From contig JBHLRO010000013.1 of NCBI GenBank assembly GCA_048882505.1, positions 30,001 through 62,000 of the forward strand: a DNA stretch of 32,000 nt, in the 5' to 3' direction. Below the pieces are notes generated by a model. That model searched no databases and was not told where the DNA came from. It saw only the letters and a program-made list of their open reading frames with translations. The stretch comes from Candidatus Thorarchaeota archaeon. Lineage in GTDB: Archaea > Asgardarchaeota > Heimdallarchaeia > Hodarchaeales > Hodarchaeaceae. Below, one piece after another: positions 562 to 8,484 of this stretch. The translations under genes and the position numbers were made by a program. Positions within the stretch are counted from its first letter, which is position 1, and the number at the start of each line of letters is the position of its first letter.

Positions 562-1680
562 TTAACTAAAGAAGCTCTCTAGCGAGGTTTTTCCAGCACT
601 ACTCTTGAGAGAAGAAACCTTTACTCCAACAAGCCGGACAGGTTTTGCAAATTCCGCGCCTTGTTCGGTAGTGAATTCTTGGAGCAGGTTTAAGGCAGTT
701 TCATAAATTGTTTTCTCGTCCGCAATGTGGGTTCTTAGTGAATGACTCCGCGTGAAGGTTTGAAATCCCTGGAACCTAATTTTGATGGAAATTGTCTTCG
801 ATACCAGCTTCCTGTCTGTTAATCGCTTTGACAGATTTGTTGTTATCTGAGCCACTTTTTCCCTGATAATATCCCATTCATCTTGGTCTGTTCCAAAAGT
901 TCGTTCAGAGCTTATAGATTTGCGTTGTACTCTGGAATTGCCCACCTCTTTGAAATTTTTTCCTTCCACAACTTTTTTCAGGTGCAATCCCCATTCTCCT
1001 ATCAGAAGAAAAACCCTCTCTCGCGATAGTTCCGCTATATCACCGATACTTCTTAATCCTTTATTATGTAGGTGTACCTCGGTCTTTTTTCCTACGCCAA
1101 CGATCTTGCGCACAGGGAGATGATATAGTTTTCGAGGGATTTCGGAATTCGGAATTAAGGTAATTCCGCCTGGTTTATCGAGGTCAGACGCGATTTTAGC
1201 AATGGATTTGGATTCTGCGACACCTAATGAGACTGAAAGGCCAACTTCCTCCTTAATGGTTGTTTGTATTTGTTCGGCGATATCACGAGGGGATTCTCCA
1301 AATTCACGCCAAATCCTGGTTACATCAAGGTAAGCTTCGTCCATACCTGCATATTGAAAAATCGATGAGAATTCACGAACGATGTCCATTACTTTTTGTG
1401 ATTCCGTCACGTATTCCGGGAATGAAATCTGTTCCCGAGAGCAGATATATACTCCATCTGGACATAACTGATATGCTTTTGATATTGGCATTCCAGAGTG
1501 CAGCCCAAACCTTCGTGCTTCATATGAGCAGGTCGAAATGACTCCGCGTCCTGTTCCGCCCCGAGGATCCGACCCTATGATGACAGGACGCCCCATCAAA
1601 AAGGGGTTGTGTTTAATATGCACCGCTGCAAAAAAGCAGTCTAAATCGATGTGAATTATTACATGATGCCAATCTTTCAT
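562..1680 (-). CDS. dinB: DNA polymerase IV (Y-family, DinB/Dpo4)
   Basis: HIDLDCFFAAV, STCSYEARRFGLHSGMP, AGMDEAYLD, SIAKIASDLDKPGG, HhH GVGKKT, little finger KSISSERTF ... VRLVGVKVS; C-terminal PIP-like KTSLESFF. Confidence 0.97.
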   Translation of the reverse strand: MKDWHHVIIHIDLDCFFAAVHIKHNPFLMGRPVIIGSDPRGGTGRGVISTCSYEARRFGLHSGMPISKAYQLCPDGVYICSREQISFPEYVTESQKVMDIVREFSSIFQYAGMDEAYLDVTRIWREFGESPRDIAEQIQTTIKEEVGLSVSLGVAESKSIAKIASDLDKPGGITLIPNSEIPRKLYHLPVRKIVGVGKKTEVHLHNKGLRSIGDIAELSRERVFLLIGEWGLHLKKVVEGKNFKEVGNSRVQRKSISSERTFGTDQDEWDIIREKVAQITTNLSKRLTDRKLVSKTISIKIRFQGFQTFTRSHSLRTHIADEKTIYETALNLLQEFTTEQGAEFAKPVRLVGVKVSSLKSSAGKTSLESFFS

Positions 1681-3563: not shown

Positions 3564-4676
3564 ATGAAAGGAGAATCTCTCTCTTTATCTATAAACGAGA
3601 AACGAGTTCTAATTGGAATTTGTAGCTTTCCTTATTCATCTGATAGTGAAATTGCAGAAGTTGTGAACACAAAACGAAGCACTTTCGGAAATATAAAAAA
3701 GCGATTGTTTGATGACTTTCAAGCCGTTCAGCCCCTTAACGTTCCGAACTTTCAGGCCCTGGGTGCAGAGCTTTTTATGTTTGGGTTAACTTTGATGAAT
3801 CCGAATAGGATTGAAAGTTTGGACAGACAGGAGATCCTAGGTAGACTTAATGCATTTCCAAATATCATTTACTCTGCCTCGGATTTGAACGTTGGTTTCG
3901 CGTATGTAGTCAGTAAATCATTTACCGATTTATCTATTGCTCACAATTCAATTGCTAGTTTTTATATCGAGGAGAATTTGACTTATCCAGAAGATGTTTA
4001 TCGTTCGATCATTCCCTTGGAAAAACCCTACGGAATTATTCGGTTTTTAGAGTTCGGAAGGATTCTACAGAAGATATGGGATGTCTCTATCCATTCCCCC
4101 ACCAACTTACCGCCGCTTTCGTCCCCTCTACAGGAAAGTTCACTCCAGATTTCTCCCCTAGGATGGGAAATTCTCAGAAATCTAGTAAAATATTCCAATT
4201 TCTCGATTATTGAACATGCTCAGGCGTTGAATCGATCCAGGAACACTATATCCCGTTGGATAAGAAAATTTACTGGTATTCACCTGTATCATCCTCGATT
4301 CATCCCGAATCTCCGCCTTTTGGGATTCAATCTGCGTGTAATCGGTTCATTTTCCTTGGAAGGACTAAAACAAACCCAACAGCTAGAATTCTTGGAACTA
4401 GTAGACACTTTCTTATTGCCCGACTCCCTTTTTCTAAGTTTCAGAGAAATCGTGTTTTCTGCAGTTTACCCTGACTACACCACCTTTCGTTCGCGCGAGA
4501 ATCAGCTTTTGACAGCGTTAGGCAAAAGGAATCTCCCTTTGATTGTGAAATTCAAAACTGAAATGACGCTAGATCGGCTTATCGTAGCAAAGAACTTTTC
4601 ATTTTCATCACTAATTGACTATCTTAAGACACCAAAGGAACGAATTTTGGCCTCTTTTGGCGAAACTAAAAGCTAA
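3564..4676 (+). CDS. Transcriptional regulator with duplicated Lrp/AsnC-like (wHTH + effector domain) units, paralog 1
   Basis: HTH1 NEKRVLIGICSFPYSSDSEIAEVVNTKRSTFGNIKKRL then PNFQALG; HTH2 LGWEILRNLVKYSNFSIIEHAQALNRSRNTISRWIRKF then PNLRLLG. Confidence 0.75.
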   Translation: MKGESLSLSINEKRVLIGICSFPYSSDSEIAEVVNTKRSTFGNIKKRLFDDFQAVQPLNVPNFQALGAELFMFGLTLMNPNRIESLDRQEILGRLNAFPNIIYSASDLNVGFAYVVSKSFTDLSIAHNSIASFYIEENLTYPEDVYRSIIPLEKPYGIIRFLEFGRILQKIWDVSIHSPTNLPPLSSPLQESSLQISPLGWEILRNLVKYSNFSIIEHAQALNRSRNTISRWIRKFTGIHLYHPRFIPNLRLLGFNLRVIGSFSLEGLKQTQQLEFLELVDTFLLPDSLFLSFREIVFSAVYPDYTTFRSRENQLLTALGKRNLPLIVKFKTEMTLDRLIVAKNFSFSSLIDYLKTPKERILASFGETKS

Positions 4677-4812: not shown

Positions 4813-5889
4813 ATGAAAGGAGTAAATATGGACCTTTCTCTTAATGAACGTCGTGTATTGACGGGCCTATGTCAATTTCCGACATTTTCAGATAGCAAAA
4901 TAGCCAATAGAATCGGAATTAACCATTCTACTTTCGCAACGGTAAAAAACCGTTTACAACAAAACGAATTATTCAGTAGGTATCGTTTGCCAAATTTATC
5001 GGCGCTTGGTGTCGAAATATTATCCGTCTTAATAAAGAACTTACGGAAAAATCCATCAGTTACACCTCATAATCTCGCGAGAATAAATTCATCCATAAGT
5101 TCACCAAATATACTCTTTTCCTTCACTGAAACAAATTTCTCATTATTAACTGTCGCACACAAAAATTTTACAGAACTAGGAGAGTTTTTATCTAAGTACG
5201 ACCGATTAACTTCTGCGGGTCAGCATATTGGCAATGAATCCAAACTGGAAATCCATTTTCCTCTTTTTTTTTCATTTATACCACGATTTCTTGATTTTTC
5301 TCGTTCTCTTCCTGTGCATCTTGGCGTGACGCCGTCCTCAGCTCCACCGAGAACCATATTCTCCAAGGTAGACTATTCAGAAGTTAAAATTACAAAACTT
5401 GGTTGGCGAATCTTCTTAGCATTCCTAGAATTTCCAGAATATACTTTAAAACAGATTACTCAGGTCGTAAATAAACCTCGAACAACCGTTTCTCGCTGGC
5501 TCCGATTATTAACTCAAACAAAGCTCATTTCCCCTATAATCATTCCCAATTTGCAAAAAATCCGTTACCAGTTATTTTTGATTAGCAATATTGCTGTAAG
5601 ATCTTCAAACAAGAAGATTTTTTCTCAAGTGTTAAGCGTTTGCGATGAGTCGATCCGTCCCATAGTTCTTATGCAGACGGATCACGATATTTTCTACTTG
5701 TCTCCCTTCTCTTCATTGGAAGAGGCTCAAAAGGCTGAATTCGAATTTATTCAAAAAATGAATGACGCCCGGATTGGATTTCGACGTGTATTTCGGAGTC
5801 TTGTTTCGATTCCCCATTCTACCTTCGCGCTTCAACTAGATTCCGGATTCCTAGAATTTACCCAGAGTTTAGGGAAATCCACACTGTAG
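4813..5889 (+). CDS. Transcriptional regulator with duplicated Lrp/AsnC-like units, paralog 2
   Basis: HTH1 NERRVLTGLCQFPTFSDSKIANRIGINHSTFATVKNRL then PNLSALG; HTH2 LGWRIFLAFLEFPEYTLKQITQVVNKPRTTVSRWLRLL then PNLQKIR. Visibly alignable with 3564-4676. Confidence 0.75.
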   Translation: MKGVNMDLSLNERRVLTGLCQFPTFSDSKIANRIGINHSTFATVKNRLQQNELFSRYRLPNLSALGVEILSVLIKNLRKNPSVTPHNLARINSSISSPNILFSFTETNFSLLTVAHKNFTELGEFLSKYDRLTSAGQHIGNESKLEIHFPLFFSFIPRFLDFSRSLPVHLGVTPSSAPPRTIFSKVDYSEVKITKLGWRIFLAFLEFPEYTLKQITQVVNKPRTTVSRWLRLLTQTKLISPIIIPNLQKIRYQLFLISNIAVRSSNKKIFSQVLSVCDESIRPIVLMQTDHDIFYLSPFSSLEEAQKAEFEFIQKMNDARIGFRRVFRSLVSIPHSTFALQLDSGFLEFTQSLGKSTL

Positions 5890-6058: not shown

Positions 6059-6454
6059 ATGGCAAGAATCCTCCTCGTCGATGATGAACGAGACCTAATT
6101 CTAATTTATACAAAATTATTGCTTATGGAGGGCCATGATGTCATTGGATCCGCCGCAAACGGCAAGGAGGCTGTTGAAAAATTCGCCCAATTACCGATCA
6201 AACCTGATATCATTGTAATGGACTATAGAATGCCAGTCCAGGATGGTCTGGTCGCCATGAAAGAAATTTTGAAGAAAAATCCGGAGGCAAAGGTACTTTT
6301 TGTAAGCGCAGAAAAGCGGGTAGAGAAGGAAGCGCTCGAGGCGGGAGCGATTGGATTTTTCACTAAACCCACAAGCATCCGTACCCTTCTTGATGAAATT
6401 GACCGAATTCAAGAATTACAGATCGAAAAGCTACAGCAGGCACGAACGTGTTAG
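6059..6454 (+). CDS. Single-domain response regulator (CheY-like receiver)
   Basis: ILLVDDE, phosphoacceptor in IVMDYRMP, FVSA, FTKP; no output domain. Confidence 0.93.
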   Translation: MARILLVDDERDLILIYTKLLLMEGHDVIGSAANGKEAVEKFAQLPIKPDIIVMDYRMPVQDGLVAMKEILKKNPEAKVLFVSAEKRVEKEALEAGAIGFFTKPTSIRTLLDEIDRIQELQIEKLQQARTC

Positions 6455-7536
6455 GGCTGAAAGTACGAAGCTAGGCTTTTAGTAGACTTTGTCCGTTTTT
6501 TTATTTGATACCTCTTATGTTCTTCTTGGAGATGTGTTTCCCACGACTTTGTTATTTTTTCCGGGAATTTTTTGCGGAGCACCTGAATCACTTCGCCTAA
6601 ACCAGGTTTTGCTGAGGGATCCTTCCCGAGGATTTCGTATACGATTTCTAGGATCTGGTAAAAATCGAATGTTCCAAACGTCTTATACTGACTCTGAATG
6701 CGTGGAGGTTTCCAGTCATCCAGGATTCTGGATTGTATTAGCTTTTTATAGCTCGAATTGATCTCATATCCTATCCCTCGTCTTCCAGTAAGACGACAGA
6801 CCTTTAAAGTTGTTCCAGACCCTAAAAAGGGATCAAGAACAGTTTCTCCTCGCACAGAATGCATCCTGATTAGCCGATATGGGACATCCTCCGGAAATGG
6901 TGCTGAATGACCGAATTTATTTTCGCCACGATGGTTGATCTTAAATACAGGGGAAATATCATCCCATATACAGCGAACGGCCCAGTGACGCCACTCTTCT
7001 TTCGTCAAAAGGCTTTTTTGCATTGCTGCTTTGTCAACTTTCCGGGTTTTTCCTGGTTTAACCCATACGAAGATCTGTTCAAATCCCGTGTTGGATGCAA
7101 TATTCGTGGGTCTAGGATAAGACCCCCAAGAAACGTTAGACACATATTCCGCCTTATCCCAATAATGCATACCTGAGAGGAAAACCCCTTGTGCCTGCAA
7201 ATATTTCTGTATGTCAAACATAATATTCTTGATGATTCGACGCCCAAATCCCGATGTGTGCCGATCAATGGGAAGGGGTTGTATATTAATCGCAATTTTT
7301 CCATTAGGTTGAAGGACACGTATACATTCGGCCCAAACACGGTTTAAAGAACTAATATAATCGTTATATGCTTGACCGAATCCAATCTGATCGCTTCCAT
7401 AATCTCGTACAGACCAATAAGGTGGAGAAGTCACAACCAAAGTTACCGACTCGTCGGGAACCTCTTCCATCTTTTCTGCAGACTTAAAGAAGATCGTTTG
7501 GCTCTCAATGACAAGTTTTTCCCCTAGAGTTATCAT
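6451..7536 (-). CDS. Orphan beta-class amino DNA methyltransferase (probably N4-cytosine) with a C-terminal extension
   Basis: Motif IV VTSPPY near the N-terminus, HSAPFP, motif I VLDPFLGSGTT, IGYEIN. This order defines the beta class; SPPY is typical of m4C enzymes. About 100 extra C-terminal aa end in TKSLASYFQP. Confidence 0.92.
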   Translation of the reverse strand: MITLGEKLVIESQTIFFKSAEKMEEVPDESVTLVVTSPPYWSVRDYGSDQIGFGQAYNDYISSLNRVWAECIRVLQPNGKIAINIQPLPIDRHTSGFGRRIIKNIMFDIQKYLQAQGVFLSGMHYWDKAEYVSNVSWGSYPRPTNIASNTGFEQIFVWVKPGKTRKVDKAAMQKSLLTKEEWRHWAVRCIWDDISPVFKINHRGENKFGHSAPFPEDVPYRLIRMHSVRGETVLDPFLGSGTTLKVCRLTGRRGIGYEINSSYKKLIQSRILDDWKPPRIQSQYKTFGTFDFYQILEIVYEILGKDPSAKPGLGEVIQVLRKKFPEKITKSWETHLQEEHKRYQIKKRTKSTKSLASYFQP

Positions 7537-7602
7537 TCCATGAGGACTCCTGTTCTTGGAAATATAAAAGATAATAGAGAGTTTGTTTTGATTCTAGATG
7601 TT

Positions 7603-8484
7603 TCAACTTAAAAAAGCCCTGAGACGCTTTAAAAGAGATATATTGACTTCATCTCCCTTATCACAGTCTTTTGGGGTCTCAAGAATCATTGGAAGCTCTT
7701 TGAATCTCCTATTTTGCATTAGTTCACGGAAGCACTCAATTCCTATTTCTCCCTGTCCAATATGTTCATGATAATCAATACCAGAACCAAGAGATCCCTT
7801 GGAATCGTTGAGATGAACTAGCTTCACCTTGTTTTTACCGATCTGTGATTCGATTATATCGAATACTTCATGCAATCCTTCTGGCACGGAAATATCATAC
7901 CCTGCCGAGAAGGCATGAGCAGTATCGAAACAAACTCCGACTTTTTCTGATCTTGTAACCAATTTCAAAATTTTTTCAATATCTTCCGTCCTTTTGCCCC
8001 AAGATTTCTGTTTTGATGTTGAATTTTCCAACAAGATCATTTGTTTTTCATCTAAATTTTCCACAACGTGGTTTAAAGCATTAGCTACCCGTTTTGCGGC
8101 AAATCCACTGTCACGGTCCTTTGGGCTACCCATATGAGATACCAAATAGAGACCATTCAAAGATTTAAGCGTCTGGACTTCTTCTTCTAGGACCTTCAAA
8201 GACCGAGCGTAAATCCCATCATCAGGAGAAGCTAGATTAGGTAGATACGGCATATGAACTGCCAAGTCATAATATCCAGCTTGTGCAGCCTTCTCAATGA
8301 ATAATGAAACCGAACCAGGATTAAGTGTGTTTTTCCCCGCAGCCCACCTTCGTGGAGGCCGTGTAAAGATTTGCAGGCATTCACAGGAACTTTTAATCCC
8401 CCTGTCAACGGCCAGATCAATGGACTCGGCGATTGATTTGTGGGCGCCTATCCGCGGTAGTTCGAGCTTTTTGTTGGATTTCAC
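7603..8484 (-). CDS. nfo: Endonuclease IV (AP endonuclease)
   Basis: IGAHKSI, LQIFTRPPRRW, AVHMPYLPNLASPD, SHMGS, ILLENS, VCFDTAHAFSAGYDI, HLNDSK..GSGIDYHEHIGQG, ILETPK (Zn ligands present). Confidence 0.96.
   Translation of the reverse strand: MKSNKKLELPRIGAHKSIAESIDLAVDRGIKSSCECLQIFTRPPRRWAAGKNTLNPGSVSLFIEKAAQAGYYDLAVHMPYLPNLASPDDGIYARSLKVLEEEVQTLKSLNGLYLVSHMGSPKDRDSGFAAKRVANALNHVVENLDEKQMILLENSTSKQKSWGKRTEDIEKILKLVTRSEKVGVCFDTAHAFSAGYDISVPEGLHEVFDIIESQIGKNKVKLVHLNDSKGSLGSGIDYHEHIGQGEIGIECFRELMQNRRFKELPMILETPKDCDKGDEVNISLLKRLRAFLS

Follow-up and report, generated by a model that had tools for sequence, protein, structure and literature searches.

We analysed a window of 32,000 nucleotides (C13:30001-62000) from an Asgard archaeal genome of 4.3 Mb that is 94.5% complete. 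The proteins encoded in the window find their best matches in Heimdall/Hodarchaeales-type Asgard archaea. The window contains a complete gene for a solitary beta-class DNA methyltransferase, the product of which continues beyond its catalytic core into a helical extension and ends in a peptide resembling the PCNA-interacting protein (PIP) box. The features of this gene, of its immediate neighbours and of a reference PIP box in the same window are collected in Table 1, and the case for a methyltransferase that may ride the sliding clamp PCNA is described below.

The catalytic core of the protein is well supported. PF01555 (N6_N4_Mtase) covers residues 31-268 with an E-value of 2.4e-39 (136 bits against a cut-off of 26.7), and profile positions 1-220 of 221 are aligned, which is near full length. 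Catalytic motif IV precedes the S-adenosylmethionine (SAM)-binding motif I, the order that defines the beta class, and both motifs are intact, so the complete beta-class SPPY methyltransferase named in a preliminary description of this DNA was recovered as such. Serine at the first position of motif IV presumably indicates N4-cytosine rather than N6-adenine, as is general among beta-class enzymes, and the source names of homologues include 'cytosine-N4-specific'. The target base is therefore probably N4-cytosine, as judged from these features. In NCBIfam the models for adenine methylases and CcrM matched below threshold only, and no specificity is assignable from them. The nearest solved relative of the core is TTHA0409 of Thermus (phmmer E 5e-35, Foldseek E 7e-21), and further close structures include the rotifer N4-cytosine enzyme N4CMT, CcrM, M.MboIIA, M.BceJIV, M.RsrI and M.PvuII. 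The best explanation of these matches is that the gene would encode an active beta-class DNA amino-methyltransferase. The TATA-box-like element upstream of the start codon suggests that the gene may have its own promoter and that its mRNA may be leaderless or near-leaderless. A scan for sigma-70 promoters and terminators is uninformative for an archaeon and was set aside.

Ninety-three residues of the methyltransferase lie beyond the Pfam domain. In an AlphaFold2 model of the protein (mean predicted local confidence, pLDDT, 77) the catalytic core reaches to about residue 272 and is followed by a well-predicted C-terminal domain with helices at residues 289-305, 313-323 and 330-349; modelled alone, the extension has a pLDDT of 85. 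No Pfam family matched this helical domain, and in a Foldseek search of the PDB no entry had an E-value below 0.9. The best-scoring entries of that search, which are not significant and serve as a lead only, are three-helix DNA-binding domains (HMG box, homeodomains). By analogy to the C-terminal domain of CcrM, the three-helix domain probably helps to hold or read DNA through extra contacts.

The last 20 residues of the model form two blocks with pLDDT of 59 and then 47, and within this low-confidence end LASYF (residues 355-359) forms one helical turn. The motif thus sits in a flexible terminal segment with a basic flank, as is often the case for PIP-box clients. Compared with the consensus Q-x-x-[LIM]-x-x-[FYW]-[FYWL], TKSLASYF has the Leu, Tyr and Phe in place and a Thr instead of the Gln. 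The Gln is also absent from many bona fide clients encoded in this genome (KTSLESFF, EKSLTDFF, KTTLSEFF). The preliminary description had reported an extension of about 100 residues with a helical segment, the basic linker and the terminal motif, and all of these statements agree with the sequence.

Table 1. Methyltransferase gene, its elements and neighbouring or reference genes, in window coordinates
Feature	Position	Strand	Remarks
DinB (Y-family polymerase)	562..1680	-	ends KTSLESFFS*, motif at 568-591; in-window reference PIP box
Response-regulator receiver	6059..6454	+	convergent with the methylase, 4-nt overlap (6451-6454)
Beta-class DNA methyltransferase, complete coding sequence	6451..7536	-	361 residues, ATG start; orthologue P0001 is 90% identical over 99%
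PIP-box-like motif TKSLASYF, residues 352-359	6460..6483	-	followed by QP and the stop codon
Basic stretch KRYQIKKRTKS, residues 341-351	6484..6516	-	sequence and length vary among orthologues
Family-specific C-terminal helical domain, residues 273-349	6490..6720	-	conserved WxPPxIExQYKTxGT stretch, then three helices
SAM-binding motif I DPFLGSGTT, residues 235-243	6808..6834	-	D235-T242 invariant in 51 homologues
Catalytic motif IV SPPY, residues 37-40	7417..7428	-	S37, P38, P39 and Y40 invariant in 51 homologues
TATA-box-like element TTTATATT	7561..7568	-	centred about 28 nt upstream of the ATG; read from the sequence
Endonuclease IV-type apurinic/apyrimidinic (AP) endonuclease (nfo)	7603..8484	-	upstream of the methylase, co-directional, 66-nt gap; conserved neighbour in Heimdall/Hod orthologous loci

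Peptides of the same kind end many replication and repair proteins of this genome. The nearest example is DinB, whose terminal KTSLESFF was said earlier to share the spacing of the methylase motif, and does. Elsewhere, the large subunit of RFC ends in EKSLTDFF, Fen1 in RQSLDQFF, and the two PolB polymerases in RQNLNQFF and QINLMEFF. Comparable endings are found on UDG (KKGLDRFL), an HhH-GPD glycosylase (PLESFF), an SRAP protein (KTTLSEFF) and Nre (QKRLTDFF). These tails share the consensus [KRQ]x[ST]L[DES]xF[FL], and most of the families concerned (PolB, Fen1, RFC large subunit, DinB/Dpo4, UDG and NreA/B) are archaeal PCNA partners (MacNeill 2016, PMC4929162). Compared at the level of sequence, the methylase tail is identical in type to the genome's own PIP consensus.

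High-scoring PIP-like tails also occur on six proteins of unknown function: a DUF72 protein (C6:146106-146939, QYGLSEFFG), a DUF4130 protein (C8:98039-98638, FASLDAFF), proteins of 120 residues (C5:193063-193425, QRQLDEFF), 117 residues (C6:128430-128783, STLDEYF) and 482 residues (C1:435126-436574, DASLSKFF…), and a tetratricopeptide repeat (TPR) protein of 655 residues (C12:70597-72564, FTQIDQFF). These six rank among the known clients and are candidates for new PCNA partners.

Short hydrophobic endings also arise by chance. In a crude set of 3425 open reading frames (ORFs) from this genome, 90 (2.6%) have the pattern [LIMV]xx[FY][FYL] ending at most four residues from the C-terminus, and a looser form of the motif ends 238 (6.9%). 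The single methylase tail, taken alone, is not beyond chance, and its support comes from comparative evidence. A class-I Trp/Tyr-tRNA-synthetase-family protein (C4:38171-39310, minus strand) ends in NKLDKFLVSD, which is unexpected for its class and may be chance. The endonuclease IV encoded next to the methylase ends in LLKRLRAFLS and fits the loose pattern; we rejected LRAFLS as a PIP box, since an orthologue ends in LLRKLRSQN and the peptide probably represents no more than the final TIM-barrel helix.

The comparative evidence comes first from the methylase family itself, for which we assembled the query and 120 homologues of 54-90% identity, nearly all from Asgard archaea (n = 121). A tail, defined as 14 or more residues beyond the last conserved helix, is present in 58 of the 121, and 51 of these 58 tails end in a motif of the form h-x-x-[FYW]-h at most eight residues from the C-terminus. 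When each tail was shuffled with its composition preserved (2000 trials), a mean of 2.6 and a maximum of 10 motifs were obtained. Typical endings are QKTVLDNFFE, RKMILDKFFD, NKSLDKFLKID, FKQLDSYF, KSFDEFL, SLLKFIK and TLLDFV, and the linkers between the last helix and the motif vary from 15 to 34 residues and have no common sequence. An alignment of orthologues had been proposed as a check on whether the terminal LxxYF/FF is kept while the linker diverges, and this is what the family shows. In a tree of the catalytic core alone, motif-bearing tails fall in at least five separated clades, and the tree needs at least 15 gains or losses of the tail, four of them on well-supported branches. Among 17 orthologues in related genomes, 12 have the tail and five stop right after the last helix, with one sequence cut by a contig end; the five tail-less orthologues form one clade. 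We regard this as strong evidence that the tail is under selection and that tails would exist, in effect, only to carry the motif. The same distribution indicates that the tail is common but dispensable: being absent from about half of the family, clamp docking would not be needed for the basic function of the enzyme.

Further evidence comes from other methyltransferases. The genome carries about 50 methyltransferase ORFs (24 PF01555, 23 PF02384, two Dam-like and one C5). This load is very high for 4.3 Mb, and many of the genes have no obvious nuclease partner (e.g. C1:138418-140517, C3:87731-88708, C4:122918-125326 and C19:29276-37735). Among the 17 methyltransferase ORFs shorter than 400 residues (PF01555, PF02086 and PF00145), eight end in the loose motif (Fisher p=6.8e-6 against the 238 of 3425 in the whole ORF set). 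The nine that do not end in it include several fragments. The clearest endings are RKTSLDQFL, RVKLSEFL, RKGLDSFME, RNLPYFLDSH and GTLIEYMSKSQ, and most PIP-tailed methyltransferases of this genome lie among housekeeping genes. A Dam-like (PF02086) methylase (C1:344295-345221, plus strand) has KLLEAFL eleven residues before its C-terminus. Such a position is missed by filters on the last six to eight residues, so the enrichment count may be conservative.

An enzyme of 258 residues (C4:187120-187896) belongs to a second, unrelated PF01555 family, in which all 59 of the 59 closest orthologues (63-92% identity) end in peptides of the KQSTLExFL type, Gln included. In its Sigyn, Loki and Hel relatives the box is retained in forms such as KKSSLDAFM, and more distant homologues end in WDxPVERRGL, without a PIP box. 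As a background control, the motif ends eight of 150 representatives (5%) in a broad PF01555 sample, which was drawn by a representative search with a third methyltransferase family, carries no taxonomy and serves for this comparison only. From its sequences, the second family appears as an independent replicate of a PIP-like tail on a methyltransferase.

Given these comparisons, we consider it reasonably probable that the solitary methylase docks on PCNA by its tail and methylates new DNA soon after synthesis. The main PCNA of the genome (L001:1489-2361, C67) matches both PCNA_N and PCNA_C; the protein ends in a strongly acidic C-terminal tail of about 35 residues (…EEHEEEGSYDDDDDEEWEDYEDENEDEE) that is also present in the orthologue consensus. 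A divergent PCNA-like paralogue (L002:970-1812, C11) has a weak match, to PCNA_N only (PF00705, E 4e-5). Modelling the tail with the host PCNA had been suggested in the preliminary description, and a complex model of PCNA residues 1-262 with methylase residues 318-361 gave an ipSAE of 0.42 (three runs, 0.40-0.42), compared with 0.01 for the best of three controls and 0.00-0.01 for the partner-swap and PCNA-swap controls. Across the runs at least 64% of contacts were shared, with a pLDDT of 50 or more for the partner. In calibration the mark was reached by 58 of 80 solved complexes and two of 110 mismatched pairs, and among passes at or below 0.60 the wrong ones outnumber the right ones, except where the guess was already a likely one. 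Moreover, PIP-PCNA complexes have already been solved, so the model may simply remember them. The model lends weak support to docking of the tail on PCNA; it is consistent with binding and is not evidence of binding.

The partner of the tail might be something other than the replicative PCNA, with the tail a selected short linear motif directed at the divergent PCNA-like paralogue, at another replisome or repair protein, or at the enzyme's own surface in autoinhibition or dimerisation. The comparisons show selection on the motif rather than the identity of its partner, the genome does have the second PCNA-like gene, and the complex model with the main PCNA is weak. Set against this, the very same peptide ends PolB, Fen1, RFC-large, DinB, UDG and Nre in this organism, all textbook PCNA clients (MacNeill 2016, PMC4929162), and the swapped partners scored close to zero in the model. 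We therefore regard a different partner as unlikely.

The genomic context bears on what a clamp-docked methylase might be for. Between the stop codon of the methylase and the convergent 3' end of the response-regulator gene there is no terminator-like hairpin. Other neighbours in the window encode an EamA transporter and helix-turn-helix (HTH) proteins. The latter include tandem paralogues (3564-4676 and 4813-5889, both on the plus strand) of about 360 residues, each with two helix-turn-helix regions (MarR/HTH_23 matches), which adjoin the methylase/response-regulator pair in orthologous loci too. The order EamA, nfo, (flavin reductase), methylase, response regulator, HTH proteins, SfsA and DinB is kept in three orthologous loci (90%, 66% and 62% identity), and Loki, Hel and one further Asgard orthologue lie among unrelated housekeeping genes. 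No restriction enzyme flanks the methylase in the window, where all neighbours are assigned to other families, and none is adjacent in six orthologous loci from four Asgard lineages; the only adjacent nuclease is nfo, an AP endonuclease. In one Hel locus an MmeI-type enzyme, which is self-contained, lies two genes from the methylase. Within the same genus-level group, a single copy of the methylase occurs in 17 of 21 genomes (62-89% identity). Of the four genomes without a match, three are 70-83% complete and one is 93% complete. A search of the two sister-family genomes at E 1e-80 did not recover the methylase. Judged from these genomes, it is a persistent, vertically inherited, near-core chromosomal orphan in Hodarchaeales/Heimdall-type Asgard archaea, with orthologues across Asgard lineages, and its initial description as an orphan without a flanking restriction endonuclease holds well beyond the window.

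This pattern speaks against a role in defence, in which the methylase would supply the modification activity of a restriction-modification or other defence system, paired with an unlinked or unrecognised nuclease, and the clamp tail, if real, would only speed the protection of new DNA. The abundance of methyltransferase ORFs in the genome fits such a role, as does the fact that some of the other PIP-tailed methyltransferases adjoin family-less proteins that could be nucleases. However, the six loci offer no adjacent nuclease but nfo, and the vertical, single-copy and syntenic inheritance (62-90% identity) contrasts with the patchy spread typical of restriction systems (Fullmer et al. 2019, PMC6471742). 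A defence function is accordingly quite unlikely in our estimation.

Several observations weigh against a clamp-docking tail. The methylase motif is without the canonical Gln and has Ala, Ser and Tyr where local clients have Asp, any residue and Phe. About half of the methylase family is without a tail, including the clade of five related genomes, and the count of 51 motifs in 58 tails overstates independence because the homologues are related. The enrichment figures are approximate, as they derive from the crude ORF set and a regex-defined motif, and one of the eight motif-ended small methyltransferases looks like a hydrophobic strand. Scored with a position matrix trained on nine bona fide client tails, the methylase tail ranks 53rd of the 3425 ORFs, in a zone of mostly false positives; NadA and ABC transporters are among the false positives scored by this matrix. 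We do not use the matrix as a judge of the methylase's Tyr variant, since it rests on nine sequences, all with Phe at position 7. The extreme form of these doubts, that the terminal motif is a chance resemblance on a neutral, functionless appendage, can draw on the 2.6-7% of ORFs with such endings, the low score of the methylase's own copy and the repeated loss of the tail, but is already disfavoured and very improbable in light of the 51 motifs against the 2.6 expected and of the replication in a second methyltransferase family (59/59, against a 5% background).

If the methylase does act from PCNA, the C-terminal peptide would dock in the hydrophobic pocket of the clamp and the enzyme would gather on PCNA rings that remain on nascent DNA, both at the fork and, possibly, in repair patches. 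Hemimethylated sites would then be converted to full methylation soon after synthesis. The term 'maintenance' may be justified, by analogy, only in this sense of timing. The methylase neighbours nfo and DinB have repair functions, and DinB is itself a PIP client; together with the near-core status of the gene, this neighbourhood hints at a housekeeping role for the mark. A role in strand discrimination, which had been raised at the outset, is disfavoured. Clamp tethering would shorten the hemimethylated period that methyl-directed repair needs, and neither MutH nor NucS was found in this 94.5%-complete genome, in which MutS is present. In such organisms, strand choice during MutS-type repair can rely on the clamp itself. 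We reject this role on logic rather than proof.

The closest functional parallel is eukaryotic DNMT1, which reportedly has a PCNA-binding (PIP) domain and performs replication-coupled maintenance methylation (Chuang et al. 1997). Both are DNA methyltransferases with a PIP-type peptide that would place the enzyme on the sliding clamp behind the fork. However, DNMT1 is a C5-cytosine enzyme of unrelated architecture, with an N-terminal PIP box, additional targeting domains (RFTS, UHRF1 link) and a demonstrated preference for hemimethylated DNA, whereas the Asgard protein is a small beta-class amino-methyltransferase with a C-terminal motif known from sequence. The relationship is one of analogy, not homology. 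Bacteria use the beta clamp, not PCNA. The likeness to archaeal C-terminal PIP-box clients is closer, with the motif in the last ~10 residues, a flexible basic context and the same consensus, apart from the missing Gln of the methylase copy. Among known structures, TTHA0409 of Thermus thermophilus (PDB 2ZIE/2ZIF/2ZIG) has the nearest catalytic-core fold and is without the 90-residue extension, and CcrM (PDB 6PBD) shares with the Asgard enzyme the solitary beta-class type and the possession of an additional domain at the C-terminus, which is DNA-binding in CcrM. In contrast to both, the Asgard enzyme has a helical domain without significant structural match and ends in a PIP-like tail.

DNA methyltransferases are not among the archaeal PCNA partners in a review of the subject (PMC4929162). 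The closest case given there is a putative adenine methyltransferase of P. abyssi, which was co-purified together with NucS, PCNA and RFC. In full-text literature searches we found no paper on a PCNA-docking methyltransferase in archaea. The halobacterial orphan CTAG (m4C) methyltransferases of the HVO_0794 family are conserved without a cognate restriction enzyme, and their cellular role is unknown (PMC6471742; PMC5867850). They resemble the Asgard enzyme, by description and not by sequence, as archaeal methylases that are widely and vertically conserved without such a partner; they differ in that no PCNA link is described for them.

As far as sequence comparison goes, there is strong evidence that this solitary, near-core methylase carries a selected PIP-like tail, which would extend the PIP-client repertoire to amino-methyltransferases. 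If the tail binds PCNA, this would be, as far as our literature searches showed, the first described clamp-coupled amino-methyltransferase in a prokaryote. More tentatively, and with rather less confidence than we give to the methylase itself, we propose that Asgard archaea routinely tether solitary DNA amino-methyltransferases to PCNA, an arrangement that would span several unrelated families in each genome, one of them near-core and linked to nfo and DinB. Such tethering would account for the continued marking of new DNA in organisms that have dozens of methylases, and DNA methylation would join the transactions that PCNA coordinates in archaea. Stable epigenetic patterns with no relation to restriction would then be a feature of Asgard genomes. 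The purpose of conserved archaeal orphan methylases becomes testable, and the small enzyme, homotrimeric clamp and two-residue knockout would make a simple system for replication-coupled epigenetic inheritance. Asgard archaea are the closest prokaryotic relatives of eukaryotes, and if the proposal is true, the clamp-based, replication- or repair-coupled rewriting of DNA marks would be an archaeal invention that parallels, and maybe predates, the coupling of DNMT1 to PCNA.

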